Part shown: positions 3,163 to 46,404 of the stretch, one piece after another
Position numbering within the stretch: the stretch's first letter is position 1
Layout: the number at the start of each line of letters is the position of its first letter
Notes under the pieces: generated by a model
Database searches by the model: none
What the model was told of the DNA's origin: nothing
The model's input: only the letters and a program-made list of their open reading frames with translations
From: an uncultured Christensenellaceae bacterium
GTDB lineage: Bacteria > Bacillota > Clostridia > Christensenellales > Christensenellaceae
Reading direction: 5' to 3'
Length of the DNA stretch: 64,000 bases
Assembly (NCBI GenBank): GCA_934373295.1
Contig: CAKROK010000001.1
Location: 19,030 to 83,029, forward strand
Position numbers and translations under genes: made by a program

Positions 3163-3675
3163 TTATTTCTTAGTTGTAACCGTCTTTGCCTTGGACCATG
3201 CGGAGTAGACGTTATAGCTCTTTGCGCCTATCTTTGTGGTCTTATAGCTCCTGACCCTTACGTAATACTTCGCGGACGCCTTGAGCTTGGTCACCGTCTT
3301 TGAAGTCGTCGTGTACTTGGCTATCGTCGCAGTCTTTGTCGTCTTTGCCGTGAACTTGGAGGACGTCGAGTACTGTACCTGATAGCCCGTTACGTAGCTC
3401 TGCTTTGCCCATGTAGCCTTGAAGCCCTTGGAGAGCGCCGTCAGCTTGGATACGCTCATCTGCTTGCCGCGGATAGCGAACGTGAGCGTCTTTGTGCCGG
3501 TATAATTGCCCTTCATCGTGACTTTTACGGTGTACGTACCCGGGAGCTTTCTGCCGGAAGCATAGCTGACCGTGTAATTGGAGGAAGCGATCTTCTTGCC
3601 GTCGGCATCCGTCACCGTGACAGCGGGCTTTTTGACCTTGCCGTCATATGTATACAGCGTCGCAGCGAGCTTTAC
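3163..3675 (-). repeat. 513-nt direct repeat, copy 1 (shared C-terminal module of the two glycosidases)
   Basis: It aligns codon for codon and without gaps to 12209-12721, with 12 substitutions in 170 residues by my manual count. Long identical nucleotide runs include CCTTGAAGCCCTTGGAGAGCGCCGTCAGCTTGGATA. Confidence 0.9.
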
Positions 3676-9456: not shown

Positions 9457-9580
9457 TAAATGCTTCCTCCTGTTTATTTTTATAGCAATCATAATGCTAT
9501 GAAAACTTTTCACTGTGATTAAAGCTACTGTTAATAAAATACGATGCTGTTTTATTTCTTCTCGTTAATTTATATCAAAT

Positions 9581-12208: not shown

Positions 12209-12721
12209 TTATTTTTTCGTTGTTACTGCTTTCGCCTTAGACCATGCGGAGTAAACGTTATAGTTCTTTCCGCTTATCTTGGTGGTCTTGTAGCTTCTAA
12301 CTCTTACATAGTACTTCGTAGAAGCCTTGAGCTTGGTTACCGTCTTAGAGGTAGTCGTGTACTTGCTTATCGTCGCAGTCTTGGTCGTCTTTGCCGTGAA
12401 TTTCGAAGATGTCGAGTACTGTACCTGATAACCGGTCACGTAGCTCTGCTTTTTCCACGTCGCCTTGAAGCCCTTGGAGAGCGCCGTCAGCTTGGATACC
12501 GTCATCTGCTTGCCGCGGATAGCGAACGTGAGCGTCTTTGAGCCGGTGTAGCTGCCCTTCATGGTGACCTTTACGGTGTACGTGCCGGGGAGCTTTCTGC
12601 CGGAAGCGTAGGTCACGGTGTAGTTGGAAGAAGCTATCTTCTTTCCGTTTGCATCCGTCACCGTAACAGCGGGCTTCTTGACCTTGCCGTCATAGGTATA
12701 CAGCGTCGCCGCTAACTTGAC
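12209..12721 (-). repeat. 513-nt direct repeat, copy 2
   Basis: See copy 1 at 3163-3675. Same orientation, about 9 kb apart. Confidence 0.9.
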
Positions 12722-15700
12722 CTTGAGCTTGCTTATATTCACCTTGGGTCTGACCGTTGCAGTAAACTGCTTTATCGCGCCTATCGAGCCGTTGTCCTTG
12801 GATATCGCCACTACTACGATAGTTCCCACGCTGTTCGCCTTTAACGCGCCGTCTATTATCGCCGCGTCGCCCGACATCACGAACGCCTCATATGCCTTGT
12901 TCGTGGCATTTTCGGGATATACGCCCACATCCAGCTTAACCGCCTCGCCAACGTATATATTGGGCGAATTGAGTATCTTCATGGATTCGACGCCTATGTT
13001 CTCGATAGTAACGGTTATCTCGTCAAAGACGTTTTCGTTCGCGTCGCTCGCCGCCCTGACGGTCACCTTGCCCGCCTTGACCGCCGTGAGCAGTCCGTTT
13101 TCGTCTATCGTCGCCTCGCCCGTCACGGGTGTGACAGACCAAACTATCTTCTGGCTCGCCTCCTCGGGGAGGATGGCCGCCGTGTACTGCGCAGTCTGCC
13201 CTATTTTAACGGTATCGGGGCCTTCGAGAACGACCGCCGCCGCTTCATAGTCCTTTAAGTACATAAATGCGTCAACTACGATCAGCGTACCCGTCGAAAG
13301 CGAGTTCTTGGTGTTTGTCGGGACGATCTTGATAGTGTGCTTGCCCGGGTCAAGCATTGCGCTTTCGAACACTACCTGCTGTTTGAGCAAGGAGGATGAA
13401 TACCAATCCGCCGTCGTTATCTTTTGCCCATCGATAAAGATATCCGCCATGCCAAGGTCGACGTTCGTAGCGCTTATCACCCTTACCATCGTGCCTTCAA
13501 AGGTAAATTCGGCATATTCCCTTATTATCGTCTCGTCGCCGTTGATATATCCGCCGCCGCCCGAGCCTGCGCCGCTGCCTGCGCCGTATTTTATGCTCTC
13601 GTCCGTGTCGTTTACGCAAATGAACGCGTCGTCGCTGACCTTTTCTGTGACCGTCACCTCGACGCTGCCCTCAATGCCGCTGCCGTCCGTCGCCCTGGCC
13701 GTTATAGTGACCTTTCCGGGCTTATGCGAGGTGATGTATCCCTGCGCATTTACGGACGCGATGCGGTTATCAGAGCTTAGCCAGATAACGTCGCAGTTTG
13801 ATGCGTTTATAGGCGTTATATCTGCTAAAAGCTTCGCGGTCTCCGCTAACTTCATGTTGACTGTTCCGCGAATTTCTATCTTTTCGACGCCTACGCCCTG
13901 CGTCTTTTCCTTTAACCAGACTATCTCGGAATCGTATTCCTTATCCATGCGGACGAGTATGCCGTCCTTCATGAGCTTTTCGCCCGTCGCGGTCACGTTT
14001 AAGTCGGTGTTGTCCTCAAAGGTCACCTCATATGTCGCGCCTGCCTTGAGGCCGTCGGGATATATCACCTTTTCCGTCTCGCTCTTTTTACCGGGGCGGA
14101 ACAGGACTATAGAGCCCATGCCTATCTTTTCATTATAATATTCAAGACCATCCCAGTTGACTCCATCGGGAGAGGGCAGTATGTGGTAAACGTCGCAGTT
14201 TCTTAAAATCTGCCTCTGCTTCGCGTTATATATCGCGTATGTCTCCTTGGCTACCTCTATCTGATGATCGGTAAAGCCGGAAAGCGTCGTCGACGGGCAA
14301 ACCATCATCGCGCCCATCAAACCCGTTCTTAAAGAATAATAATCCCATGCGTTCTGATCCGAATATGTTCCTTCAAGCGGCGGCCAGTCAATGGAATTAT
14401 CCACCTTTAATTGAACGGGGTTGATCATATAAGAATCCGCATATGCAACATTCCTGTGAGCAAGCGCCCTGCCGCTATCCTCCGTCGTCATGAACGTCAT
14501 GCGTTCAAGCGAGGTGAAGTCCTTTAACGCGCCGCCGCCCGAACAGTGCTCATAACGGAAGTTTGGCAGCTCGCTGTCGTTTATGAGCTGATCTAACACC
14601 CACATGAAGCCTTCATGAGAGGCGTAGTTGTTCGTTGCATCCGGCCCTTCAAGGTTGAAATCGCTTCTATAATAGTCGATATTCCACTCCTTGAGCCTGT
14701 ATTTGAGTGCTCCAAGGTTCTTACTCCTGCCGTTCCAATCCGCAATAGATGTATCCTCATATGTCTGGCACATATATAGCGTCATCTTCATACCGTATGA
14801 ATGTGCGAGATCACCCAAAATCATACCATTGGGCCATTTCGTGGGGTAAGGATTCCATTTTGACTGAAGCTCGGGTACAAAGCTGCCATCTGAGGGCGGG
14901 CTGTTAGGTACAGTCCACCAGTAATCCTGCTTTAAGAGTTGAACTCCCCAACTCGCGACATCATGCTCGGAGAGATAAGTCGTCCACTCCTCCTCGGAGT
15001 TAAATGGAAGGTGCAGCTCGACGAGCGGTTCATTCTCGTTTTCGCGCATTGTCTTTGTCATTCTGTGATTCCAATACCAGCTCTTCATCCTATTAGAGCC
15101 GTTATCTATCGAACCTTTGTACGCGCCGAAGAACATTCCGGGGATGACGAGATTATCGTCCGCATCCGCAACGCCGTCGCCGTCCTTATCGCCTGCATCT
15201 AACTTTCTCGTGACATTGCCACTGCTGCCCAGCGTCGCCTTGACCCTTATTTTGAGCGGGTCATCCTGCGTTTCGACAGTCATGTCGCCAAAGCTCCAAT
15301 AATAGCCGTAGTATAATCCCTGGCCGCTGCTCGTCTGCAAGAGCTGGAAGGGCAGCCTGTGATTTCCGTTCCATACGGACACGTTAGTCACGTTTGAGCT
15401 ATGCTCAAAGCCGCTGTCTATGACCTCCTCATACACCTTGCTCGTCATGTCAGACCCTGTATAGCTGCGCTTTTCAAAGTACGTGAGCGTGGTCTGGGAG
15501 TCCGCCGTGAGCACTATGTCACCCGATACTATGTCCGCATATTTGAACGTGAGCGTTTCACCCGATTTGTTCTCGATCTCCGCCCAATACTGTATGGGGC
15601 CGTTTTCGCCGGGATAAGCCTGCCAATATGCGGTCAGCTCCATCGCGGGGTCGGCGTTCGTGAACTTTATCTTTAACAGCTTGCCGTCCTTTTCGTCTAT

Positions 15701-17728
15701 CTCTTTTCCAGCATATTTCCAATCCGTTGCCTTGCCGTTGACGGCGCCCACTAAGGGCATCTCCTGCGCCTCGGCGGGGGTTATCCACTTATGACCGGTA
15801 TCAAGAGCTGTAAGCTCCTCAATATACTGTTTATCACCATCAATCGCAATGGTCATAGACGTATCGGCAGATGAAAGAACCGTGCGCTCGGCGTTTTCGG
15901 AGAGAACCGTTCCGTCCTGCTCATAGTAGTTGGACGCCTTGTCGAGATACAGCCCGTCGAATATCGCCGCGCCGCCCGTCGTGTTCAGCTTTATAGAAGT
16001 GGATCTCGCGCTGCCGCTGTTAAATACGGTGGAAACGCGCTCCCATTCGCCCTGTTTTGTCGTATTTATTTTAACGTCGCCGTCTAACGCGGATATCTGC
16101 GCCGTCGCTCCGGAAAGCGCCTTGACCCATCCCGTCAGAATGTAATCCGTGTTTGCGGCTATGGCAACGTTATCGGAGGTCGCCGCCGCGGCGTCATCCG
16201 AAAGAAGCAGAGCCTTTTTGCCAACATATGCGTCGTCCGTTATGCTCGCGCCGTTTTCTATCTTCCAGTTTTCAGCGTGATATGATGTATAATAGCCCTC
16301 AAAGGTTCCGTTTTTGACGAGATTATCGCCGTTCGTGGTGATAGCCGCCTGGCGCAGAGATACCTCGTCAATGTACGCCGTGTTTACCGTTCCGTCCGTT
16401 TCGGGATGCACCACCGCCCTGACGGTTATCTCTGTATGACTTCCACTGTACCAGAAACCGGACATCAATATCCAATAATCGTCTTTGTAGCCGTCGTGAT
16501 TATATGTCGTGCTTTCGAGCTGGACCTCGCCTTCAGCGTCGTTCATGTCGATATACGCCGTCGCCGTCTTGGGCGCACCTGTGAGGTAGACCCATGCGGA
16601 GAATACATACTGTGTATTTGGCGTGACCGCGATGGGCTTTCCACCGTTAGCCACGGCTATCGCATCGCCCGCAGTTCCCGCGCTCATTGCTGATTTAAAC
16701 GAGTATTTGTCGCTCTTTCCCTTGTTCGTCGCTATCGCCGCATTTTCGTTAAGCTCCCACTGGCCGAGCGAGAAATCCGGGTCGGGAATGAGATTTTCCT
16801 GAACGTCCGCCTTTACGAGCGAGACGTTATCCACCATCGCCTTGCTGCCGTCGTTTATAGAGGATGTGGCGTTGTCCCAGTTGCCCTCGGTGACTATTCT
16901 GACAGTCGTAGACGTGTTCGAGCCGGAGTACCATAAGCCCGCGAGGTGTTCCCACTCTTTTACCTTGTGTCCCCTCAATCTCATGTTTTCCGCCGTGGGG
17001 TACATGTCGATATAAGTCCACTTGCCGTTGCCGTAGCGATATATGTCAGCAGAATATATGTACCACGTGTTCTTTTCAACGGATACACTCTGGTTGATTA
17101 TCGCCGCATTGAGCGCCATTCCCTCGCCGCCGATAGCCGTCGCGTCCGATGTCGTGCCGCCGCTCCAGCCCGTCGTGCCGTTTTCAAAATCGCCGTTCTT
17201 TACAAGCTCTATCGCGGTGTCATACACTTCACAGATATTGACCTCGTCAAAAAGGACGTCTCCCTTTGCGGTCAATGTGATGGACGTTTTCTCGAGGTCG
17301 CCGGAGGAAAATTCCTTTGAATAATACACCCACGCTCCCGCGCCGTCCGCTTCTATAACGATATCCGTCCCGTCGAGCGCGATCTTTGCGACATCCGCCT
17401 GCGCGCTTTTCTTTATCCACGCGGAGACGATGTAGTTCTTCTTTTTCGCGAGCGCAATGTCGTCCGTCTTTGCTGTTCCCTCTGCGCCGCCCACGTATTT
17501 CAAGGCGTTTACGCCCTCTTTAACGTCGTCCGTTACGACCGTAAAGCCCTCGCCGAGCTGCCATCCGTCAAGGGATTTTGACGGCTCATGCGAGTCCTCA
17601 AAGGAACCGTTTTGCAGCAAGTTCTTCTGTCCGCCGGCCGCAAAGACCGCCGCTTCGCCCGATATCATAGCGGATATCACGAGAGCAAATGTCAAAAGAA
17701 ATGCAATTATACGTCTGTTTCTTTTCAT
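12209..17728 (-). CDS. Giant secreted multi-modular glycoside hydrolase, GH36-like (clan GH-D) catalytic region (about 1839 aa)
   Basis: It has a signal peptide MKRNRRIIAFLLTFALVISAMISGEAAVFA. Four CBM_4_9-like modules follow (NLLQNGSFED, LVKNGDFENGTTGW, NLVKNGTFEG). The core carries IDYYRSDFN, EHCSGGGALKD and TTEDSG, resembling the GH36 KWDMN, CSGGGGR and SDNTD motifs. It also has Big_2-like domains, one beta-sandwich module of the GH2-gene type, and the shared C-terminal module. I moved the start to ATG 17728, which has AAGGAG 6 nt upstream. Confidence 0.8.
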   Translation of the reverse strand: MKRNRRIIAFLLTFALVISAMISGEAAVFAAGGQKNLLQNGSFEDSHEPSKSLDGWQLGEGFTVVTDDVKEGVNALKYVGGAEGTAKTDDIALAKKKNYIVSAWIKKSAQADVAKIALDGTDIVIEADGAGAWVYYSKEFSSGDLEKTSITLTAKGDVLFDEVNICEVYDTAIELVKNGDFENGTTGWSGGTTSDATAIGGEGMALNAAIINQSVSVEKNTWYIYSADIYRYGNGKWTYIDMYPTAENMRLRGHKVKEWEHLAGLWYSGSNTSTTVRIVTEGNWDNATSSINDGSKAMVDNVSLVKADVQENLIPDPDFSLGQWELNENAAIATNKGKSDKYSFKSAMSAGTAGDAIAVANGGKPIAVTPNTQYVFSAWVYLTGAPKTATAYIDMNDAEGEVQLESTTYNHDGYKDDYWILMSGFWYSGSHTEITVRAVVHPETDGTVNTAYIDEVSLRQAAITTNGDNLVKNGTFEGYYTSYHAENWKIENGASITDDAYVGKKALLLSDDAAAATSDNVAIAANTDYILTGWVKALSGATAQISALDGDVKINTTKQGEWERVSTVFNSGSARSTSIKLNTTGGAAIFDGLYLDKASNYYEQDGTVLSENAERTVLSSADTSMTIAIDGDKQYIEELTALDTGHKWITPAEAQEMPLVGAVNGKATDWKYAGKEIDEKDGKLLKIKFTNADPAMELTAYWQAYPGENGPIQYWAEIENKSGETLTFKYADIVSGDIVLTADSQTTLTYFEKRSYTGSDMTSKVYEEVIDSGFEHSSNVTNVSVWNGNHRLPFQLLQTSSGQGLYYGYYWSFGDMTVETQDDPLKIRVKATLGSSGNVTRKLDAGDKDGDGVADADDNLVIPGMFFGAYKGSIDNGSNRMKSWYWNHRMTKTMRENENEPLVELHLPFNSEEEWTTYLSEHDVASWGVQLLKQDYWWTVPNSPPSDGSFVPELQSKWNPYPTKWPNGMILGDLAHSYGMKMTLYMCQTYEDTSIADWNGRSKNLGALKYRLKEWNIDYYRSDFNLEGPDATNNYASHEGFMWVLDQLINDSELPNFRYEHCSGGGALKDFTSLERMTFMTTEDSGRALAHRNVAYADSYMINPVQLKVDNSIDWPPLEGTYSDQNAWDYYSLRTGLMGAMMVCPSTTLSGFTDHQIEVAKETYAIYNAKQRQILRNCDVYHILPSPDGVNWDGLEYYNEKIGMGSIVLFRPGKKSETEKVIYPDGLKAGATYEVTFEDNTDLNVTATGEKLMKDGILVRMDKEYDSEIVWLKEKTQGVGVEKIEIRGTVNMKLAETAKLLADITPINASNCDVIWLSSDNRIASVNAQGYITSHKPGKVTITARATDGSGIEGSVEVTVTEKVSDDAFICVNDTDESIKYGAGSGAGSGGGGYINGDETIIREYAEFTFEGTMVRVISATNVDLGMADIFIDGQKITTADWYSSSLLKQQVVFESAMLDPGKHTIKIVPTNTKNSLSTGTLIVVDAFMYLKDYEAAAVVLEGPDTVKIGQTAQYTAAILPEEASQKIVWSVTPVTGEATIDENGLLTAVKAGKVTVRAASDANENVFDEITVTIENIGVESMKILNSPNIYVGEAVKLDVGVYPENATNKAYEAFVMSGDAAIIDGALKANSVGTIVVVAISKDNGSIGAIKQFTATVRPKVNISKLKVKLAATLYTYDGKVKKPAVTVTDANGKKIASSNYTVTYASGRKLPGTYTVKVTMKGSYTGSKTLTFAIRGKQMTVSKLTALSKGFKATWKKQSYVTGYQVQYSTSSKFTAKTTKTATISKYTTTSKTVTKLKASTKYYVRVRSYKTTKISGKNYNVYSAWSKAKAVTTKK

Positions 17729-17970
17729 CTTTTTCTCCTTTACATGTTTTTCATTATCCATTGGACAATATAAATTTCGAGTAATCGATTACATTTTAAC
17801 TTGACATTCAGAACGGCACTATAAAATGTCTAAAAACCCCGTTAAACATCAATGTTTCACAGCATTAAGTGAAATGTTATCGAATACATGTATTTATTCT
17901 ATTATATTCAATAGGAGAAGTAAAATCAACAACTATTTTAAAAAAATATTATGTCATTTATCGTTTGATG

Positions 17971-36350: not shown

Positions 36351-37358
36351 TTACAGTAAAACTATTCCCGCATCCGCGCACTTCTTCATGGTATCTTCAC
36401 CCCAAACGCTCGCCTGAACCTCGCCGATATGCGCGCAGCCCATCATGAGCATACACAAACGCGATTGACCTATGCCGCCGCCGATGGTCAGCGGAAGCTC
36501 GCCGTTTATCAGCATCTTATGGAAGGGAAGCTCGAGGCGCTCCTCACAGCCCGCCTTTTTGAGCTGGCTTTTGAGGGAAGTCTCATCCACCCTTATGCCC
36601 ATCGAGGATACCTCAAATGCGCTGCCTAAGACCTCGTTATAGAAGAGTATATCGCAGTTTAACGCCCAGTCGTCATAGTCGGGCGCTCTGCCATCGTGGC
36701 GCTCGCCGCTCTTGAGGACATCGCCTATCTGCATTATGACGGCCGTTCCGTGCTCCTTTAAAAACGCATTTTCGCGCTCCTTGGGCGTCTTATCGGGATA
36801 CATGTCCTCAAGCTCCTGAGACGTTACGAACGCCGCATCTCTCGAGAGCTTTACGTGCAGCGGAGGAAACTCCTCCTTGAGCGCGTCATTCGTGTCACAC
36901 GCCGCGTTTATTATCTTCTGCGCGGTCGCCTTTAAGAAGTCAAGCGTCCTGTCCTCGCGCGTGATTATCTTTTCCCAATCCCACTGGTCGACGTATACGG
37001 AGTGGATGTTGTCCACCTCCTCGTCGCGGCGGATGGCGTTCATGTCCGTATAAAGCCCCTCGCCCACCGAGAACTCATATCTCTTTAGCGCGAGTCTCTT
37101 CCACTTTGCGAGCGAATGCACGACCTCGCCGTTTAAAGACATATCGGGTATGTCAAAGCTTACGGGGCGCTCCACGCCGTTTAAATTGTCGTTAAGGCCG
37201 GAGCTCTGCGTGACGAAAAGGGGCGCGGACACCCTTTTAAGGTTGAGCGCGCTTTTCAGATAATACTGAAACGAATGCTTGATATACTCTATCGCCCTCT
37301 GTGTCTCGTATACGCTGAGCGAGTTTTTATATCCTTTGGGAATCATTGAACGATCCAT
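36351..37358 (-). CDS. asnA: Aspartate-ammonia ligase (asparagine synthetase A)
   Basis: 335 aa. The sequence ETQRAIEYIKHSFQYYLKSALNLKRVSAPLFV...GGGIGQSRLCMLMM is the AsnA class II synthetase-like signature. Confidence 0.9.
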   Translation of the reverse strand: MDRSMIPKGYKNSLSVYETQRAIEYIKHSFQYYLKSALNLKRVSAPLFVTQSSGLNDNLNGVERPVSFDIPDMSLNGEVVHSLAKWKRLALKRYEFSVGEGLYTDMNAIRRDEEVDNIHSVYVDQWDWEKIITREDRTLDFLKATAQKIINAACDTNDALKEEFPPLHVKLSRDAAFVTSQELEDMYPDKTPKERENAFLKEHGTAVIMQIGDVLKSGERHDGRAPDYDDWALNCDILFYNEVLGSAFEVSSMGIRVDETSLKSQLKKAGCEERLELPFHKMLINGELPLTIGGGIGQSRLCMLMMGCAHIGEVQASVWGEDTMKKCADAGIVLL

Positions 37359-38491: not shown

Positions 38492-39316
38492 TCATCTATC
38501 TACAGGGATGAGTATCTCCGTCACGAACTTTTCCGTGTCGCTCGTGATGCCGTAGTCTATCATAGTGACCTCGCGCGATGGGCCGCATATTTTAAGCCCA
38601 TTTTCGTGGGCAAAGTCCATCAGCCGCGAATACTGCTCGGGCGCCTCCGTGTGGCTTCCGCGAAAGCGAACGCGCATACACAGCGTCTCGCCTAAAGTGC
38701 GCGTCTGTCCGTCATAGTTATCCTCTTCATCTAAAATCAAGAAAATGCTGTCGTATCGGGCATATTGTCCGGAAATAAGGTGGTCTTTTGATATGCTCAA
38801 GCCCACCTTTCCCAAAAACACGACGGGCTCGGCGTCCGATTTTTCCAGCCTGCGAATGGGCGCCTCCATGTCCAAAAACTCGCTTATGTTGAGCGAATCG
38901 TCCATCCATACCATTCGACACGCGCCCGCGCGCACTGTCTCCACGCAGTTTATCTTCGCGTTTTGCGCCTCATTGAGCTGCTTTAGACGGTTATCTATCT
39001 TGCGCTCGATGCGCTTTAACTCCCGCTGCTTTTCCACCACCGCCGCCTTTTGCTGCCTGAGCTTTTCCTCGATGCGCCCGACCTCTCTGTTCTTTAAAAA
39101 ATCGGAAATCTCATAGAGCGGCATGTCCAGCGCGCGCAGGTATCTTATCGTATTCAACACCTCAAATTGGCGCGTGCTGTAATATCTGTAGCCCGACTCG
39201 GGCGAGACGTACTCCGGCGTGAGCAAGCCCTCTTTTTCGTAATGCCTAAGACTGCTCACGCTCAAATGAAACAGCCGCGCAACATCGCCTATCGAAAACA
39301 GCTTTTTATCATCCAT
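38492..39316 (-). CDS. MerR-family regulator with a GyrI-like effector domain (BmrR type)
   Basis: The HTH is FSIGDVARLFHLSVSSLRHYEKEGLL, followed by a coiled coil and a GyrI-like C-terminus. I moved the start to ATG 39316 (MDDKKLF), which overlaps the MATE stop by 8 nt. Confidence 0.85.
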   Translation of the reverse strand: MDDKKLFSIGDVARLFHLSVSSLRHYEKEGLLTPEYVSPESGYRYYSTRQFEVLNTIRYLRALDMPLYEISDFLKNREVGRIEEKLRQQKAAVVEKQRELKRIERKIDNRLKQLNEAQNAKINCVETVRAGACRMVWMDDSLNISEFLDMEAPIRRLEKSDAEPVVFLGKVGLSISKDHLISGQYARYDSIFLILDEEDNYDGQTRTLGETLCMRVRFRGSHTEAPEQYSRLMDFAHENGLKICGPSREVTMIDYGITSDTEKFVTEILIPVDR

Positions 39317-40679
39317 ATGCGGGTCTGTCCCCCTTTTTAAGCCTGTCATTGCGCCTTATGAGCACGAACGCTATGACGCATATTATAACGGATAACAAAG
39401 ACCCCGTCGCCGTCGCCAGCCCCATGGGAAAGAGCGTATCCGCGAACAGCTTTGACGTGAGGTATACCCCCGGTATGCGCACGAGCGCGATAGCGACGAT
39501 GTTATGTAAAAAGGACAATCCCGACTTTCCGCACGCGCAGAAATACCCGCTGAAGCTGAAATGCACGCCCGCAAAAATGCAGTCCCAGATATATCCGCGC
39601 ATATACTGCCCACCCATGCGCACGACCTGCGCTCCCTCCGCAGTGGCCGAGTCCGTAAACAGCGCCACGATGGATTCCGCACAGAATTGTATCGCGACGG
39701 ACACTATTATGCCAAAGCCGACCGCGATAAATATCGCATATCTGAGCGTGCTTATCGCGCGCTCGGGCTTTCCCGCGCCGATGTTCTGCGCGCCCAGCGC
39801 CGAAACCGCGGACAGCATGGAGGATGGGACGAGGAACACAAAGCTCATGAATTTTTCCACTATTCCCACCGCCGCGGCATCGTTAAGCCCTCTGTGGTTC
39901 GCGATAATCGTTATTATTATAAATGCGACCTGAATTAGGCCGTCCTGCACGGCCACGGGCACGCCTATTTTTAATATCTGACTCATGACTTCCCGCTTAG
40001 GCTTAAAATCATCTTTTTTGATATCGACGCTTTTTCTTTTTATTATGACTATCAACGAGACTATCACGCTTATAGCCTGCGCGAGCGTCGTGCCCAGCGC
40101 CGCGCCCGCAGGGCCTAATCGAAGCGCGCCCATGAACAGATAATCCAGCCCTATATTAGCAAGGCAGGCCAATGCGATAAAGTACATCGGACTCTTGCTG
40201 TCCCCCATCCCGCGGAATATCGAGCTTATTATGTTGTATGCCGTTATAAACGGTATGCCGATAAAGCATATCGCGAGATAGCTGACCGTCCCCTCGACCG
40301 CCTTTTGCGGCGTGGACATCACGGAAACTATCGGGCGCACAAGCACGAGCAGAATTATGGTTATAACTACGGAAAGGGACATGAACAGCGTAACGGTGTT
40401 TCCCACATCCTGCGCCATGCGCTTTTTATTCCCCGCGCCCACGGCACGTCCTATGCTCACCGTCGCGCCCATAGCGAGGCCGACTATCATCACCGTGAGC
40501 ATGTGCATCACCTGAGAGCCTATCGAGACGGCGGTCGTGCTCGCGACCTGCTCATACTGCCCGATTATAAACAGATCCGCCATGCCGTAAAGCGTCTGCA
40601 AGAAATATGAGAGCAGATAGGGCAGGCTGAACACTATTACGTTTTTAAATACACTTCCCGTGGTGAGATTTTTTTCCAT
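39309..40679 (-). CDS. MATE-family multidrug efflux transporter
   Basis: 456 aa with about 12 hydrophobic segments and a typical MATE N-terminus (FKNVIVFSLPYLLSYFLQTLYGMADLFIIGQ). Confidence 0.9.
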   Translation of the reverse strand: MEKNLTTGSVFKNVIVFSLPYLLSYFLQTLYGMADLFIIGQYEQVASTTAVSIGSQVMHMLTVMIVGLAMGATVSIGRAVGAGNKKRMAQDVGNTVTLFMSLSVVITIILLVLVRPIVSVMSTPQKAVEGTVSYLAICFIGIPFITAYNIISSIFRGMGDSKSPMYFIALACLANIGLDYLFMGALRLGPAGAALGTTLAQAISVIVSLIVIIKRKSVDIKKDDFKPKREVMSQILKIGVPVAVQDGLIQVAFIIITIIANHRGLNDAAAVGIVEKFMSFVFLVPSSMLSAVSALGAQNIGAGKPERAISTLRYAIFIAVGFGIIVSVAIQFCAESIVALFTDSATAEGAQVVRMGGQYMRGYIWDCIFAGVHFSFSGYFCACGKSGLSFLHNIVAIALVRIPGVYLTSKLFADTLFPMGLATATGSLLSVIICVIAFVLIRRNDRLKKGDRPAYG

Positions 40680-40832: not shown

Positions 40833-40861
40833 TTGAGCAACCGCAAAAAAAGATGTAAAAT
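40833..40861 (+). promoter_or_regulatory. Candidate promoter of the Dlt-like operon
   Basis: TTGAGC (40833-40838), a 17-nt spacer, then TAAAAT (40856-40861). Confidence 0.35.
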
Positions 40862-40908: not shown

Positions 40909-42414
40909 ATGTTTAAAAACGTGCTTGACTGCTTCGAAAATACGGCGGATAAATACGCGGAAAGGCCCGCGGTCACGGACGAAAACACGACCATCAGCTA
41001 CCGCGAGCTTAAAAACCGCGCGCAAAAAATGGGCGGCGCTTTGGCGGGCATGATATCCCAAAGGCAGCCCGTCGCGGTTTACGGCGATAAGAGCATCTCC
41101 GTCCTATGCGCATTTTTGGGCATAGCCTATGCGGGAGGGTGCTATACCTTATTAAACCCCGAGCTTCCCGAGGACCGCTTAAAGACGGTCTGTACTCTCA
41201 TAAATTCCGACTTCATATTGACGGACGACGAGCATTTTAAAAGAGCGTCCGAGCTTTTTTGCGATAAAAAAATAATACTCATAAGCTCCCTTTTGGATAT
41301 GCCGGCGGAAAATTCGGCGCTTCTTGTTGAGCGGCGCAGACGCTCGATAGACACCGACCCGCTCTACATCAACTTCACATCCGGCTCGACGGGCGTGCCC
41401 AAGGGCATAGTCGTGAGCCACCGCAGCGTGATGGATTTCATATCCTGCTTCACCGAGCTTTTTGACATCGGCGATACAGACGTCATCGGCAATCAGGCGC
41501 CCTTTGATTTTGACGTCTCCGTTAAGGACATATACTCCGCGCTGTTCACAGGCGCAAGGTTGGTCATTATACCGCGCAGACTGTTCTCCGCCCCCACCGC
41601 GCTAATAGACTATATCTGCGAAAACGGCGTGACGACTATGATATGGGCGGTCTCCGCATTAAGCCTGTTAAAGACGTTCCACGCGCTGGAATACAAAAAT
41701 CCCGCGAACGTGCGCAAGGTGCTTTTCAGCGGCGAGGTCATGCCGAATAAAGTGTTAAATTATCTTCGCCGCTTTTTGCCAAATGCGCTTCTCGTCAACC
41801 TATACGGCCCGACGGAAATAACCTGCAACTGCACCTACCATATCCTCTCCCCCGAAAGGGATTACGCGGACGGCATACCCATCGGCATACCATTCCCCAA
41901 CGAAGATGTCTTTTTACTGGACGATGAAAACCGCGAGATAACGGAAAAAGATGTTTCAGGCGAGGTATGCGTGCGCGGGACGGCGCTCGCGCTGGGGTAT
42001 TACCGCGCGGACGACGAAAATGAAAAACACTTCACGCCAAACCCGCTCAATGGCTGCTATCCCGAAAGGATATACCGCACGGGCGATCTCGCAAAATACG
42101 ACCAAAACGGCGAGTTGGTATTCTGCGGCAGGAAGGACTTTCAGATAAAATACATGGGGCACCGCATTGAGCTGGAGGAGATCGAGCGCAGGATGGCCGA
42201 GACGAACGGCGTCGAGCAATGCTGCTGCATCTTTGACGATAAAAAGCAGCGGTTAAAGGGCTATTACATCGGCAGCATCGACAAGGCCGAGCTTCATTCG
42301 ATATTAAAAGGCTCACTGCCCGCGTTCATGGTACCCGGAATACTGCATAAGCTGGAGAGCTTCCCGCTCACCAAGAACGGGAAGACGGATCGCAAAAAGT
42401 TAGCGGATTTATAG
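40909..42414 (+). CDS. DltA-like carrier-protein ligase (stand-alone adenylation enzyme)
   Basis: 501 aa with AMP-binding core motifs FTSGSTGVPKG, YGPTE, YRTGD and the C-terminal PLTKNGKTDRKKL. Size and layout match DltA. Confidence 0.85.
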   Translation: MFKNVLDCFENTADKYAERPAVTDENTTISYRELKNRAQKMGGALAGMISQRQPVAVYGDKSISVLCAFLGIAYAGGCYTLLNPELPEDRLKTVCTLINSDFILTDDEHFKRASELFCDKKIILISSLLDMPAENSALLVERRRRSIDTDPLYINFTSGSTGVPKGIVVSHRSVMDFISCFTELFDIGDTDVIGNQAPFDFDVSVKDIYSALFTGARLVIIPRRLFSAPTALIDYICENGVTTMIWAVSALSLLKTFHALEYKNPANVRKVLFSGEVMPNKVLNYLRRFLPNALLVNLYGPTEITCNCTYHILSPERDYADGIPIGIPFPNEDVFLLDDENREITEKDVSGEVCVRGTALALGYYRADDENEKHFTPNPLNGCYPERIYRTGDLAKYDQNGELVFCGRKDFQIKYMGHRIELEEIERRMAETNGVEQCCCIFDDKKQRLKGYYIGSIDKAELHSILKGSLPAFMVPGILHKLESFPLTKNGKTDRKKLADL

Positions 42415-42423
42415 GAGAAACAT

Positions 42424-43596
42424 ATGGAAAGAAACGTCTTTGCGTCCTCCGGCGCGTATTATACATTCGACATACCCGCCTTAAAGCGCAGGATTGCATA
42501 TTTGAGAAAAAATCTTCCCGAAAACGTCGATCTATGCTACGCCGTCAAGGCGAACACGTTTATCGCGGGCGATATTGCGGATGAAATCGACCGCTTTGAG
42601 ATATGCTCCCCCGGCGAAAGCCTGATATGCGATAGATCAGGCATTAGCGCGGATAAGACGGTGATATCGGGCGTATATAAAAGCCCCGAGCATATAGAAT
42701 CGCTCGTTAAAGCGGGCGGCGGGCGCATATATACCGCGGAATCCCCGCGTCAATTCGACCTGCTCCTCGCATTATCCCAAAAATACGATTCCACCATTCC
42801 CGTTTTGCTTCGTATAACCAACGACAGCCAGTTCGGCATGGAGCAAGCGGACATCGAGAAGATAATAAGCGAGAGAAAATCGCATAAAAACATCGATATT
42901 TTGGGTATACAATTCTTTTCGGGAACGCAAAAGACCTCCCTTAAAAAGCTAAACAGGGAGCTTAAAATGCTGGATGAATTCATCGCCCGCCTATATGAAG
43001 AATACCGCTTTACCGTGCGCGAGCTGGAATACGGCACTGGCTTCCCCGTGAGCTACTTCACGGAGGACGAGTTTGACGAGGATGAGTTTTTGAGGGGATT
43101 TAGCGAGCTTTTAGCCAACCTCAATACAGACGCCAAAATCACTCTCGAGCTGGGCAGGAGTATCGCCGCGAGCTGCGGCTGCTACTACACCGACATCGTG
43201 GACATAAAGCACAACAAGGGACAGAATTACGTCCTCATAGACGGCGGTATGCACCAGCTTGTCTACTTCGGTCAGCACATGGCCATGAAGCACCCGTTCA
43301 TGCACGTCGTCGGAAAGGAAAACGCCCAGCCCACCGCGCTTTGGAACATATGCGGCTCGCTGTGCTCGATGAACGACATCGTCTCAAAGCAGGTCCCGCT
43401 GCCCGACATAGCCGTGGGCGACAAGCTGTGCTTTAAAAACACGGGCGCATACTGCCCCACCGAGGGCATATCCCTCTTTTTGAGCAGAGACCTCCCCGCC
43501 GTATACAAGATATATGAGAACGGCGAGACCCGGCTCATAAGGCCCAACATCGAAACAGCGCAATTTAACATGTTATATAATGAAAGGAGCTTTTAA
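42424..43596 (+). CDS. Fold-type III PLP enzyme of the Orn/DAP/Arg decarboxylase family (divergent)
   Basis: It has CYAVKAN (PLP lysine), ELGRSIAA (for EPGR), LIDGGMHQL and CGSLCSMNDIV. The usual HxHIGS and GGG blocks are altered to IQFFSGTQ and YGTGF. Confidence 0.8.
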   Translation: MERNVFASSGAYYTFDIPALKRRIAYLRKNLPENVDLCYAVKANTFIAGDIADEIDRFEICSPGESLICDRSGISADKTVISGVYKSPEHIESLVKAGGGRIYTAESPRQFDLLLALSQKYDSTIPVLLRITNDSQFGMEQADIEKIISERKSHKNIDILGIQFFSGTQKTSLKKLNRELKMLDEFIARLYEEYRFTVRELEYGTGFPVSYFTEDEFDEDEFLRGFSELLANLNTDAKITLELGRSIAASCGCYYTDIVDIKHNKGQNYVLIDGGMHQLVYFGQHMAMKHPFMHVVGKENAQPTALWNICGSLCSMNDIVSKQVPLPDIAVGDKLCFKNTGAYCPTEGISLFLSRDLPAVYKIYENGETRLIRPNIETAQFNMLYNERSF

Positions 43597-43597
43597 C

Positions 43598-43825
43598 ATG
43601 GAAAACCTCATAGAGATACTCGAAAACATTCAGCCGGACATCGATTACGATACCTGCACCGACCTTATAGACGGTCATCGTTTTGACTCTCTTTCCATCA
43701 TCTCGCTTATTTCGGAGTTAGAGGATGAATTTGACATAACCATCCCCGCCGTGGATATAATCCCCGCGAATTTCAACTCCGCGCAAGCTATCTGGAAGAT
43801 GATCTGCCGCCTTCAGGAGGATTAA
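43598..43825 (+). CDS. DltC-like acyl/peptidyl carrier protein (75 aa)
   Basis: The phosphopantetheine site is FDSLSIISLISELEDEF. I moved the start to ATG 43598, which has GGAG 9 nt upstream and lies 2 nt after the preceding stop. Confidence 0.8.
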   Translation: MENLIEILENIQPDIDYDTCTDLIDGHRFDSLSIISLISELEDEFDITIPAVDIIPANFNSAQAIWKMICRLQED

Positions 43826-43828
43826 AAG

Positions 43829-45475
43829 ATGTCCTCTACCGCTGCTGCTGAAACTACGCTTTTGACCGGCAAATTCAGCGATCTGACCTCGTTCTTTTCG
43901 CTCATATATTTGGCGGTCTTTCTTCCCGTATGCATTATTGGCTATTCGCTCATGCCAAAAAAGCTCAAGAAGTACTTTTTACTCGTCGCGAGCTTCTGTT
44001 TTTATTTTCTCATAAGCGGAAAGCTGCTGGTATACCTGCTTTTGGCGATAGTCGTCACATTCCTTTTTGGATTATGGCTCGATAATGTCGGCTCAAAGCG
44101 GGATATCATATTAAAGCAGACGGAAAAGAGCGAAAGAAAAGCGGTAAAAAAGCGGTTTTTACACTACAGCAGATGGATACTCGCCTTTGCGGTGACGCTT
44201 TTGGCGGGCGGTCTGCTCGTCTTTAAGTACTCCGCATTCGCGCTCTCCAACATAAATGTGCTTTTCAGGGCGATGGATGTGTCATTTAGGCTGAAGGTTC
44301 CGTCCTTCATCATGCCCATCGGCATATCATTTTTCTCACTGATGGCGATATCCTACCTCGTGGACGTATACCGCGGCGTGATCCCCGCCGAGAAAAAGCC
44401 CTTTAAGCTCGCGCTGTGGCTCTCGTATTTCCCGCAGATAGTCGAGGGCCCTATTTGCAGGTATTCTCAAACCGCGGACGCGCTTTGGAGCGTGGAGAAG
44501 ATAAAGTTTGATAACCTCACCCTCGGATTGCAAAGAATACTATTCGGCCTCATGAAAAAGCTGGTCGTCGCGGACAGGCTAAACACGCTCGTCTCCGCCG
44601 TTTTTGAAAATTACAGGGAATACAGCGGCGGCATAATCGCGCTCGCGGCAATTTGCTATACGATACAGCTCTACATGGACTTTTCAGGCTCGATGGACGC
44701 GGTCGTGGGTACTGCGCAGATATTCGGCGTGACCATGCCCGAAAACTTCAACCACCCGTTCTTTTCAAAGACCATTTCCGAGTTCTGGACACGCTGGCAT
44801 ATCTCGCTCGGCGCGTGGTTTAAGGACTATATCTTCTATCCGCTGACCATGTCAAAGCCCTTAAAAAAGCTCACGTCAAACGCGCGTAAGAAGATAGGCA
44901 ATCACTACGGCCCGCTGCTTTCGGGCAGCATAGCCCTGCTGTGCGTTTGGTTCTTAAACGGCCTCTGGCACGGCTCGGATTGGAACTACATTTTCTTCGG
45001 GATGTATCATTTCGTGCTCATACTCTGCGGCAGTCTCATATCTCCCCCGTCGAAATGGCTATGCCATAAGCTGAAGATAAAGACGGACTCATGGCCATAT
45101 AAGGCAATGCAGATAGTGCGCACCATCATTTTCGTCATAATCGGCGAGCTGTTCTTCCGCGCGGAGGGACTCAATAACGGTCTCAACATGTTCTCTAAGA
45201 TGGTAGGCTCGTTTAGCTTCACGGCGCTCACCCCCACCCTGCTCGAAAAGCTGGGCGTGGACATAGCCGATCTCATAATAGTCGGCGTTACGGTCGTCAT
45301 AGTTTTGGTCGTGAGTATTTTAAACGAACGGGGCATATGCATACGCACGTCCTTAAAGAAGAAAAACGTCGTGCTGCGCTGGGCGATATGGTATGCTCTC
45401 ATATTGTTCATAGTGATTTTCGGCGCATACGGCCGCGGATATATCCCCGTCGACCCGATGTACGCAAACTTTTGA
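43829..45475 (+). CDS. MBOAT-family membrane O-acyltransferase (DltB/AlgI-like)
   Basis: It is polytopic, with MBOAT blocks FWTRWHISLGAWFKDYIFYPL and FLNGLWHGSDWNYIFFGMYH (conserved His). Confidence 0.9.
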   Translation: MSSTAAAETTLLTGKFSDLTSFFSLIYLAVFLPVCIIGYSLMPKKLKKYFLLVASFCFYFLISGKLLVYLLLAIVVTFLFGLWLDNVGSKRDIILKQTEKSERKAVKKRFLHYSRWILAFAVTLLAGGLLVFKYSAFALSNINVLFRAMDVSFRLKVPSFIMPIGISFFSLMAISYLVDVYRGVIPAEKKPFKLALWLSYFPQIVEGPICRYSQTADALWSVEKIKFDNLTLGLQRILFGLMKKLVVADRLNTLVSAVFENYREYSGGIIALAAICYTIQLYMDFSGSMDAVVGTAQIFGVTMPENFNHPFFSKTISEFWTRWHISLGAWFKDYIFYPLTMSKPLKKLTSNARKKIGNHYGPLLSGSIALLCVWFLNGLWHGSDWNYIFFGMYHFVLILCGSLISPPSKWLCHKLKIKTDSWPYKAMQIVRTIIFVIIGELFFRAEGLNNGLNMFSKMVGSFSFTALTPTLLEKLGVDIADLIIVGVTVVIVLVVSILNERGICIRTSLKKKNVVLRWAIWYALILFIVIFGAYGRGYIPVDPMYANF

Positions 45476-45486
45476 GGTGAACGTCA

Positions 45487-46404
45487 ATGAAACAGTTTTT
45501 TAAACATGTATGCACAGGCGCAGTATTTATAATAATACTCGCAATTCTGCTGGGCGCGGCATCCTTCGTCTTTAACCCCAAGGATAACTCAAAAAAAGCC
45601 GGGATGCAAGACCCCACCGCACATGGCTATCTCGCCGAGCCGGAAAACAGCATAGACGTATTGTTCGTGGGCGACAGCGAGTGCTACAGCGCATTTTCAC
45701 CAAAGGTCATTTGGAAACAGCAGGGCATAACCTCATACGTATGCGGCACGCCCGGTCAAAAGCTGTATTATTCGCTTGAAATGATAGAAGAAGTCTTTAA
45801 AAGGCAGTCTCCCAAGATCGTCGTATTGGAGACAAACGCCATATACAGAAAATTCGCGAGAAAATCGGTAGCAGTAAACGAAGTCGAGCTTGCGCTGCCC
45901 ATATTCAGATATCACGACCGCTGGAAGACTTTAAGCGCGGACGACCTCAATTTCAATACGCAATACACGCATATCGAAAAGAACAGAGGCTATCGCGTCA
46001 ATAAGGATGTTCGCTCGGTCTCCCCCGGAAAGTACATGAAAAAGACCAAGATTCGAGAGACCATACCGAAAATCAACCTCGATTATATGGATAAGATAAT
46101 CTCACTTTGTGAGGAGCACGGCGCGCAGCTCATTCTGGTGAGCACGCCCAGCACCAAGAACTGGAGCTATAAGCGACATAACGGCATAAAGGAATATGCC
46201 GAGGAAAAGGGGCTTAAATACATCGACCTCAACACCGCCAAAAAGCTCAAAATAGACTGGACAAAGGATACCCGCGACCACGGAGACCACCTGAACCACT
46301 CGGGCGCAAAAAAGGTCTCAAAGTACATGGGAAAGTACTTCAAAAAGACAGGGCTTTTTGAGGATAAGCGCGGACGCACGGAATATGCGTCATGGGACGA
46401 GTGA
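45487..46404 (+). CDS. Membrane-anchored SGNH/DHHW-type protein in the DltD position
   Basis: It has an N-terminal TM segment, a block I-like LFVGDSECYS and a C-terminal DHGDHLNHSGAKK (DxxH-like block). Confidence 0.65.
   Translation: MKQFFKHVCTGAVFIIILAILLGAASFVFNPKDNSKKAGMQDPTAHGYLAEPENSIDVLFVGDSECYSAFSPKVIWKQQGITSYVCGTPGQKLYYSLEMIEEVFKRQSPKIVVLETNAIYRKFARKSVAVNEVELALPIFRYHDRWKTLSADDLNFNTQYTHIEKNRGYRVNKDVRSVSPGKYMKKTKIRETIPKINLDYMDKIISLCEEHGAQLILVSTPSTKNWSYKRHNGIKEYAEEKGLKYIDLNTAKKLKIDWTKDTRDHGDHLNHSGAKKVSKYMGKYFKKTGLFEDKRGRTEYASWDE

Follow-up and report, generated by a model that had tools for sequence, protein, structure and literature searches.

By the textbook account, Firmicutes adjust their surface charge, withstand cationic peptides and interact with the host through D-alanylation of teichoic acids. 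In the DltXABCD system, a stand-alone ligase loads a small carrier, and the membrane components are an MBOAT with a catalytic His, a Tyr hexapeptide and a membrane-anchored SGNH protein. MBOAT-SGNH systems pass the acyl group via the Tyr of a C-terminal FxYxxF hexapeptide, which in Dlt is carried by the DltX microprotein and in acetyl-CoA-using systems forms part of the MBOAT itself, fused via two additional transmembrane helices, Neisseria gonorrhoeae PatA ending in FIYANF; no carrier protein is found in MBOAT-SGNH pathways other than Dlt (PMC12148441). Quite separately, antibiotic biosynthesis employs modules made of a ligase, a free-standing carrier and a pyridoxal 5'-phosphate (PLP) decarboxylase, namely VinN/VinL/VinO, FlvN, BolO/BolC/BolN and BtrJ/BtrI/BtrK, in which Asp, 3-methyl-Asp or Glu is loaded via its side-chain carboxyl and decarboxylated on the carrier to give a beta- or gamma-aminoacyl thioester (PMC11284099, PMC7756342). 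For the Vin pathway, experiments have established that an adenylation enzyme, a free-standing acyl carrier protein (ACP) and a PLP decarboxylase jointly form a beta-aminoacyl-ACP, Asp is activated by FlvN, and bolagladin was no longer produced when bolN was deleted (PMC11284099, PMC7756342). Here we analyze a five-gene operon that appears to join these modules, so far known apart, by combining on-carrier decarboxylation with an MBOAT/acyl-Tyr/SGNH relay. It lies in a 64-kb stretch of DNA from an uncultured Christensenellaceae bacterium, referred to below as the window.

An earlier note on this DNA had read the operon as a non-canonical Dlt-like system with a PLP enzyme of the ornithine/diaminopimelate (Orn/DAP) decarboxylase family placed between the ligase and its carrier. 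Re-deriving the open reading frames (ORFs) from the window returned the same five genes, all on the + strand at 40909-46404 and spaced by 9, 1, 3 and 11 nt, and Pfam and NCBIfam agree with the domain identities that the note had given to the ligase, the PLP enzyme, the carrier and the MBOAT. We consider it fairly probable (about 0.58) that this cassette is a Dlt-like, carrier-dependent MBOAT-SGNH system which puts an aminoacyl group other than D-Ala on an extracytoplasmic envelope polymer, after decarboxylation of the amino acid on the carrier. The features concerned are as follows.

40909-42414, + strand: ligase, a stand-alone adenylation enzyme of the non-ribosomal peptide synthetase (NRPS) type, 501 amino acids (AMP-binding, AMP-binding_C, TIGR01733)
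42424-43596, + strand: fold-type III PLP decarboxylase of the Orn/DAP family, BtrK/SbnH-like, 390 amino acids (Orn_Arg_deC_N, Orn_DAP_Arg_deC)
42547-42549, + strand: codon of Schiff-base Lys42 of the PLP enzyme
43363-43365, + strand: codon of proton-donor Cys314 of the PLP enzyme
43598-43825, + strand: aminoacyl carrier protein, 75 amino acids (PP-binding)
43688-43690, + strand: codon of phosphopantetheine-attachment Ser31 of the carrier
43829-45475, + strand: DltB-like MBOAT acyltransferase, 548 amino acids (MBOAT domain)
44798-44800, + strand: codon of catalytic His324 of the MBOAT
45158-45472, + strand: C-terminal extension of the MBOAT, residues 444-548 (past the end of the DltB model; hydropathy)
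45455-45472, + strand: hexapeptide P543-M-Y545-A-N-F548 that ends the MBOAT (orthologue alignment)
45487-46404, + strand: membrane-anchored extracytoplasmic SGNH-fold protein in the DltD/PatB functional position, 305 amino acids (AlphaFold model, Foldseek)
45676-45678, + strand: codon of Ser64 of the SGNH protein
40833-40861, + strand: weak sigma-70-like promoter candidate TTGAGC-17-TAAAAT in the 229-nt gap 5' of the operon (9/12 match, not above shuffled background)

The five starts are preceded, in order, by the Shine-Dalgarno-like motifs GGAAGG, AGGAG, AAGGAG, AGGAGG and GAGGTG. For comparison, relatives of the PLP enzyme were scanned in one genome per species, and at least 548 loci were found to encode them. 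The conservation counts given below refer to the best 80 species-level loci of these (up to about 21 kb each), and neighbor counts to those loci whose contig reaches far enough.

Cassette proteins and their nearest families

By curated thresholds, the cassette proteins fall in none of the DltA, DltB, DltC, DltD, LysA and TIGR03098/TIGR03099 families. The ligase scored above the cut-off of the amino-acid adenylation model TIGR01733 (336.8 bits), and, as in dlt systems, this stand-alone enzyme is co-encoded with its own carrier and an MBOAT. We nevertheless rejected its assignment as a DltA, since it scored 274.7 bits against TIGR01734 (cut-off 559.85) and 286.2 bits against NF003417 (cut-off 476), and since most of its specificity positions differ. 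In the PDB it is no less close to IdnL1 (5JJQ, 222 bits) and the LgrA A domains (210 bits per domain) than to DltA (~190 bits); of these, the first is a beta-aminoacyl-ACP ligase and the second an NRPS A domain (PMC11253843).

The specificity code was read from an alignment of the ligase family with GrsA-PheA (1AMU) and with DltA of Bacillus subtilis and Bacillus cereus (3E7W/3DHV), with the references checked against the PDB; the published DltA pocket residues D197, L198, C269 and V301 were reproduced. The ligase code is DVKILSLCNK (D202, V203, K206, I245, L272, S274, L298, C306, N307 and K492), whereas DltA reads DLMT(M/L)CTVAK in the same alignment, and the two codes share only the universal Asp235 and Lys517. 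The D-Ala pocket of B. cereus DltA is made up of L198, C269 and V301, with C269 excluding L-Ala (PMC11253843), and these residues are replaced in the ligase by V203, S274 and C306, respectively. The earlier note had proposed that the operon handles an amino acid other than D-Ala and that the specificity residues should be compared with those of DltA. That comparison, with 8 of 10 positions different and Cys269 changed to Ser, supports the proposal, while the substrate, the product and the acceptor are matters that we infer from the evidence discussed below. Moreover, DVKILSLCNK is identical or nearly so in all 80 species, in which the ligases are otherwise only 52-62% identical, and it is also kept in two distant cassettes (L086 and L087). 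Because this code is so widely kept and the pocket is unlike that of DltA, one conserved substrate other than D-Ala is implied by the alignment.

K206, which corresponds to position 239 on the pocket floor, is invariant and is the only basic residue in the ligase pocket. We take Lys239 to be the ligand of the Glu side-chain carboxylate in the Stachelhaus code DAKDLGVVDK, and the L-S-L at positions 299/301/322 is typical of small-substrate pockets. The ligase of another distant cassette (7219-8724 in L091/L092) has the code IARGCSQASK, in which the near-universal Asp235 is lost and Arg stands at 239; this suggests another substrate or another binding mode, probably still with a distal carboxylate. 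Two ligase lineages, both of them accompanied by a decarboxylase, have a basic residue at 239, and this points to a loaded substrate with a second carboxylate, as a decarboxylase would need.

The PLP enzyme contains both decarboxylase domains according to Pfam, Orn_Arg_deC_N and the C-terminal Orn_DAP_Arg_deC, and, like BtrK and VinO, it is a fold-type III enzyme with intact catalytic residues whose gene lies next to those of a loading ligase and a free-standing carrier. Its best relative of solved structure is BtrK, the L-glutamyl-[BtrI ACP] decarboxylase (E 1e-29; family profile 140.7 bits), followed by a small margin by SbnH and then LysA (119.7 bits); the precedent that the earlier note had seen in BtrK is therefore the top match, if a narrow one. 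SbnH (6KNH) decarboxylates amide-tethered diaminopropionate (PMC7139808). Foldseek searches with the predicted fold returned decarboxylases for all of the top 50 matches, with TM-scores to LysA of ~0.8. Invariant in the 80 species are Lys42, Glu242 and Arg245 (ExGR), Cys314, Asp318 and Tyr343 (GAY). The motifs CYAVKAN, LIDGGM and CGSLCSMND were present as the earlier note had described, as were the diverged HxHIGS and GGG blocks (GIQFFSGTQ and EYGTGF).

The fold, the catalytic Lys and Cys and the ExGR motif are common to the PLP enzyme and LysA. Unlike LysA, however, the PLP enzyme is always encoded within the cassette and scored only 150.2 bits against TIGR01048 (cut-off 297.9). In alignment with Aquifex aeolicus LysA (2p3e), the Arg and Tyr of RPxxY are replaced by Y281 and H285 and the Glu of CES by S315, and these replacements are conserved, which bears out the earlier view that an ordinary LysA is unlikely. 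In LysA, the RPxxY Arg and Tyr and the CES Glu hold the distal amino-acid end of DAP, and their loss would fit a substrate whose distal end is neutral (a thioester). The diverged blocks have parallels in BtrK and SbnH: the catalytic Cys is followed by Ser or Thr315 in the family, by Thr in BtrK (CTPED) and SbnH (CTPKD) and by Glu in LysA, and an aromatic residue, Phe165, takes the place of the second His of the HxHxGS block, where BtrK has Tyr. A 1046-aa homologue (P0273) was considered as a Rosetta-stone fusion and rejected; it is joined to surface-protein and transglutaminase domains, not to a carrier or MBOAT, and is probably a gene-call artefact.

The top NCBIfam match of the PLP enzyme was TIGR03099. 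Together with TIGR03098 it forms the exosortase A system-associated families, another ligase-decarboxylase pair tied to exopolysaccharide loci, itself uncharacterized and with no description found in full-text literature searches. TIGR03098 is also a strong match of the ligase, but both cassette proteins score far below the cut-offs, the ligase with 205 against 592 and the PLP enzyme with 158 bits against 478.

The carrier matched PP-binding and has its Ser31 in a (D/S/E)-S-L motif that is invariant across the 80 species and reads FDSLS in the window copy, as the earlier note had recognized. It scored 27.9 bits against the DltC model NF003464 (cut-off 68), and DltC chains in the PDB matched at E ~4e-5. 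An alternative in-frame ATG at 43580, 18 nt upstream, would give 81 amino acids and overlap the end of the PLP gene; the start at 43598 is favored because the AAGGAG motif precedes it and public gene calls use the 75-aa form.

For the MBOAT, DltB was the sole NCBIfam match (TIGR04091, 159.9 bits against a cut-off of 375) and the only sequence match in the PDB (6BUG and 8JEM), in line with the DltB/AlgI-like MBOAT of 548 residues that had been proposed. His324 is invariant among the orthologues. The DltB model ends at residue 443, and the protein runs 105 residues further, with two extra hydrophobic helices past residue 470 in the hydropathy profile and the C-terminus ...VDPMYANF. The pattern P-x-Y-A-x-F stands at the extreme C-terminus in 61/61 full-length orthologues; in the window copy, the first Phe of FxYxxF is thus Pro. 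The earlier note had seen no obvious DltX-like small ORF, and we likewise found no credible one in the 229-nt gap 5' of the ligase gene. The two extra helices and the terminal P-x-Y-A-x-F offer an explanation, in that a separate DltX appears to be replaced by a shuttle motif of the DltX/PatA type fused to the MBOAT. With its score below the cut-off, no DltX ORF and a shuttle-bearing extension of its own, the protein was not classed as DltB proper.

Judged from these motifs, the cassette is apparently a hybrid of a Dlt-type donor (ligase and carrier) and a PatA-type fused shuttle. Such a configuration lies outside those covered in PMC12148441, since the MBOAT-SGNH pathways other than Dlt there lack a carrier protein. 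PatA/PatB and AlgI-type systems likewise have two additional C-terminal MBOAT helices ending in a shuttle hexapeptide (FIYANF in the gonococcal PatA, PMYANF here), but they use acetyl-CoA with neither carrier nor ligase (PMC12148441), whereas ligase and carrier genes accompany the PLP gene in all loci that could be assessed. It follows that a carrier-dependent MBOAT can bear what looks like a fused shuttle motif.

The fifth protein had no significant Pfam match. Its AlphaFold model (pLDDT confidence score 94.7) has an SGNH fold with one N-terminal transmembrane helix, and Foldseek returned SGNH hydrolases, including PatB (7TJB, E 1.7e-5). Invariant residues comprise G62-D-S64-E and D264-x-G-D267-H268. 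The earlier description as a membrane-anchored SGNH/DHHW-type protein holds for the fold and the anchor but not for the DHHW family, to which none of 30 members gave a match at E<=1. DltD (PF04914) was rejected as well, with no match for the protein or 30 orthologues. On the evidence of its model, it is best regarded as a generic or PatB-like SGNH protein, which would be a functional analogue of DltD and not a member of its family.

Compared with DltXABCD, the cassette therefore has an additional PLP decarboxylase gene, the gene order A-PLP-C-B-D, a shuttle fused to the MBOAT, an SGNH protein from outside the DltD family and a ligase code that shares two universal residues only. The Vin, Flv, Bol and Btr modules, known from Actinobacteria, Burkholderia and Bacillus, have the same trio of ligase, free-standing carrier and PLP decarboxylase, but their product feeds polyketide synthase, NRPS or aminoglycoside lines instead of an MBOAT-SGNH exporter. 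Btr further differs in its ATP-grasp ligase and its protecting group, neither of which the cassette has, and the closest precedents are the VinN/VinL/VinO, FlvN and BolO/BolC/BolN modules and not the ATP-grasp-based Btr pathway alone. By analogy, the system would work like Dlt at the membrane and like Vin or Btr in the cytoplasm.

Linkage, distribution and genomic context

The five genes are strictly co-inherited. The ligase gene lies immediately upstream of the PLP gene in 78/78 loci and the carrier gene downstream of it in 74/74, and its neighbors include an MBOAT gene in 68/70 and an SGNH gene in 53/59. About 80/80 of the species-level loci examined have these five genes side by side, so that their juxtaposition in the window is not due to chance, while the wider genomic surroundings vary from locus to locus. 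In the co-occurrence survey that the earlier note had proposed, the PLP gene was thus cassette-linked in every species examined, contrary to the lack of linkage that the note had named as part of a refutation. Distant relatives with PLP enzymes of 33-38% identity still have the five components linked, but in rearranged order: MBOAT-X-ligase-PLP-carrier in L086, where the cassette lies inside a glycopolymer locus with genes for glycosyltransferases, UDP-GlcNAc 2-epimerase, AT3 and VanZ; response regulator-histidine kinase-MBOAT-X-ligase-carrier in L087, with the PLP gene divergent; and ligase-carrier-PLP-MBOAT-X in L091. Since the linkage survives these rearrangements, there is strong evidence that the five genes serve a single pathway.

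Almost all of the best 80 loci belong to Oscillospiraceae, Ruminococcaceae and other Clostridia, including Ruminococcus bromii ATCC 27255, Ruminococcoides intestinale, Agathobaculum, Pseudoflavonifractor, Catenibacillus scindens and a complete Oscillospiraceae chromosome. Six typical Clostridia-type cassettes (L022, L026, L042, L046, L048 and L080) come from "cleanbin" assemblies under the titles Bacteroidaceae, Muribaculaceae, Bacteroidales or Phascolarctobacterium; a wrong taxonomic label or a contaminated bin is the probable cause, and not a true occurrence outside Clostridia. Two metagenome-assembled genomes (L007 and L011) keep ligase, PLP gene and carrier but lack MBOAT and SGNH genes between the carrier and a threonyl-tRNA synthetase gene, where L003 has both, and represent either a deletion variant or a mis-assembly.

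Directly upstream on the same strand, 24/58 loci (~40% of species), R. bromii included, have an OmpR-type response-regulator gene (for example L003-L005, L001 and L023), separated from the cassette by a histidine-kinase gene in the loci read in detail. In three further species a divergent regulator is found 200-250 bp upstream, while the window copy has no adjacent two-component system. Adjacent two-component systems, found in many cassette-bearing genomes, are a further likeness to DltXABCD, and the arrangement suggests, by analogy with dlt, an inducible envelope modification. In the complete Oscillospiraceae genome (CP176394.1, L001 14070-14882), the SGNH gene of the cassette is followed by one for a Pfam-recognized GDSL-family protein, which might be a de-acylating esterase analogous to Ape1.

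The ligase-carrier-decarboxylase trio was also found without an MBOAT in other cluster types and, on account of this recurrence, behaves as a portable building-block module. Two loci with PLP relatives of 32-34% identity (L089/L090) contain genes for radical-SAM, PALP, methyltransferase, NAD-synthase-like, AMP-binding and KAS III proteins and an 82-aa carrier-like ORF, and probably serve to make a small molecule by means of the same module for on-carrier decarboxylation. A third relative in this identity range, on a short contig (L096), has only a methyltransferase gene and an uncharacterized ORF beside the PLP gene. In L088 (7216-10155), a carrier-ligase-PLP trio follows genes for two GT2 glycosyltransferases and a heparinase-II/III-like protein, with no MBOAT before the contig end; this locus may encode a cytoplasmic route to an aminoacylated polysaccharide.

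Database names of the PLP enzyme are "alanine racemase", "diaminopimelate decarboxylase family protein" or none. Together with generic adenylation and MBOAT labels, these names may lead metabolic reconstructions to mis-assign lysine or D-Ala metabolism. The earlier note had believed the gene combination to be uncharacterized, and full-text literature searches indeed returned no description of this cassette.

Predicted pathway and alternatives

Four steps are proposed for the pathway. The ligase would activate a dicarboxylic amino acid, most likely L-Asp via its beta-carboxyl or L-Glu via its gamma-carboxyl, and load it as a thioester on the phosphopantetheine of the 75-aa carrier. The tethered substrate would have its alpha-amino-acid end free; with this end the PLP enzyme would then form an aldimine and remove the alpha-carboxylate, yielding beta-alanyl-S-carrier or 4-aminobutyryl-S-carrier. 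Precedent for these two steps lies in the Vin and Bol logic, in which thioester formation comes before decarboxylation and free beta-alanine does not rescue (PMC11284099, PMC7756342). In the third step, His324 of the MBOAT would move the acyl group across the membrane onto the protein's own Tyr545 (in PMYANF, in place of DltX), and in the fourth, Ser64 of the SGNH protein would take it and esterify a hydroxyl of a cell-wall glycopolymer or teichoic-acid-like polymer, with an added cationic amine as the result. The DltB/X/D and PatA/B mechanisms provide the precedent for these last steps (PMC12148441). The acceptor would be an envelope glycopolymer, to which the glycopolymer locus of L086 and the response regulator upstream in 24/58 loci point.

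Conversion of Asp to beta-Ala is slightly favored over that of Glu to 4-aminobutyrate (GABA), because the pocket looks small and lactam formation is to be expected of a 4-aminobutyryl thioester or ester that has no protecting group. A GABA thioester is expected to cyclise readily, and the Btr pathway guards it with a protecting group. In favor of Glu are the position of BtrK as top match of the PLP enzyme and, in the ligase alignment, the parallel of Lys239 with the Glu code.

Several findings weigh against the proposed pathway. The ligase keeps the VinN-like Asp235 (D202) and Ser301 (S274), but its beta13-beta14 loop is as long as that of GrsA, without the shortening of VinN, and positions 330/331 are Cys-Asn where VinN has Lys-Arg. 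The signature of VinN-style beta-carboxyl activation thus appears to be only partly present, and for this reason we did not file the ligase as VinN-type. It may instead activate an acidic amino acid through the alpha-carboxyl, which would leave an alpha-decarboxylase without an obvious on-carrier substrate. The lead of BtrK over SbnH and LysA in sequence score is small, and Foldseek did not separate a BtrK-like from a LysA-like enzyme, all fold-type III decarboxylases scoring alike. No protecting-group enzyme is encoded in the operon, which weakens the Glu/GABA version in particular. The genes flanking the operon in the window, for glycyl-tRNA synthetase (GlyRS), a penicillin-binding protein (PBP), MATE, MerR and AsnA, are unrelated housekeeping and transport genes and give no hint of the acceptor.

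The most serious alternative, though an unlikely one, is that the PLP enzyme acts on a free metabolite (meso-DAP to L-Lys, Asp to beta-Ala or Glu to GABA) before loading, so that the carrier never holds a dicarboxylic substrate and the MBOAT/Tyr/SGNH part is unchanged. Most characterized members of the PLP family use free substrates, LysA is almost as close a relative as BtrK, and gene linkage alone does not tell on-carrier from off-carrier action. An invariant Lys206 at position 239, or Arg in L091, would, however, make little sense for Lys, beta-Ala or GABA, and the LysA residues that bind DAP (the RPxxY Arg and Tyr and the CES Glu) are replaced. Beta-alanine feeding also failed to rescue the bolagladin decarboxylase mutant (PMC7756342), which shows the on-carrier logic of the closest analogues.

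Less probable again is a role of the cassette in membrane-lipid acylation or in the making of a secreted small molecule, with the MBOAT-SGNH pair as a lipid or metabolite acyltransferase. The MBOAT-less trios in the secondary-metabolite-like clusters L089/L090 and beside the glycosyltransferases of L088 would agree with it, and AlmEFG provides an example of Dlt-like loading in the service of lipid A modification (PMC11253843). Against it, the SGNH protein is membrane-anchored and PatB-like, and the cassette of L086 is embedded in a glycopolymer locus. Alginate and cellulose are also acylated by bacterial MBOAT-SGNH pairs. Pairs with FxYxxF acylate extracytoplasmic polymers, namely lipoteichoic acid and peptidoglycan (PMC12148441).

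Epimerisation of a free or carrier-bound residue, which the earlier note had kept as an option, found no support, and we rejected a racemase or epimerase that supplies a D-amino acid to a DltA-like ligase as very improbable. Fold-type III enzymes do include racemases, NCBI names several orthologues "alanine racemase", and Pfam gave a weak match to Ala_racemase_N (38 bits). The matches to both decarboxylase domains were stronger, however, the C-terminal beta-sheet domain included, Ala_racemase_C gave no match in Pfam, there was no racemase among the Foldseek top 50, and the proton-donor Cys, ExGR and GAY are invariant; the Orn/DAP-decarboxylase subfamily is not known to include a racemase. Lastly, chance insertion of a housekeeping lysA into an ordinary D-Ala dlt operon has a gene logic like dltABCD in its favor, with DltB and DltC as the nearest named relatives of MBOAT and carrier, but it was rejected as having hardly any likelihood left, being largely refuted by scores far below the cut-offs of all four Dlt family models and below that of the LysA model, by replaced D-Ala pocket and LysA substrate residues, and by linkage of the PLP gene in 78/78 species and across gene-order variants.

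Returning to on-carrier decarboxylation followed by MBOAT-SGNH transfer, a more specific picture can be drawn, which we hold tentatively and at somewhat under even odds. In hundreds of clostridial species of gut and rumen, the keystone starch degrader R. bromii among them, an envelope polymer would bear ester-linked beta-alanyl or 4-aminobutyryl groups, made from carrier-held Asp or Glu and exported by the first carrier-fed MBOAT with its own DltX-type Tyr shuttle. The modification would often be under two-component control and would constitute a new determinant of cationic charge or antimicrobial-peptide resistance. The at least 548 genome matches suggest that Oscillospiraceae and Ruminococcaceae, a large section of the gut microbiota that has been little studied, may use a different chemistry for the purpose that D-alanylation serves elsewhere. 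The cassette thus predicts a previously undescribed envelope chemistry that is widespread in important gut anaerobes, and cultured carriers (R. bromii ATCC 27255, Agathobaculum, Pseudoflavonifractor, C. scindens and Acidaminobacterium) make the prediction directly testable.

Surroundings of the window copy

No riboswitch or T-box was found in the operon leader. Upstream, the operon is flanked by a divergent MATE/MerR pair (38492-40679), and downstream by a convergent GlyRS gene and then the PBP gene. An AsnA-type aspartate-ammonia ligase is encoded 3.5 kb upstream (36351-37358, - strand); it uses Asp and lies near a possibly Asp-using cassette but is probably unrelated to it. The GC content of the window is ~50%, which, together with large surface enzymes, agrees with an origin from a human-gut clostridial genome. 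Two giant ORFs on the - strand encode proteins of 2116 (3163-9513) and 1850 (12209-17761) amino acids, the former with GH2 and CE2-type domains and the latter with CBM_4_9 and Big_2, and both are multidomain carbohydrate-active surface enzymes typical of fiber- and starch-degrading Clostridia.

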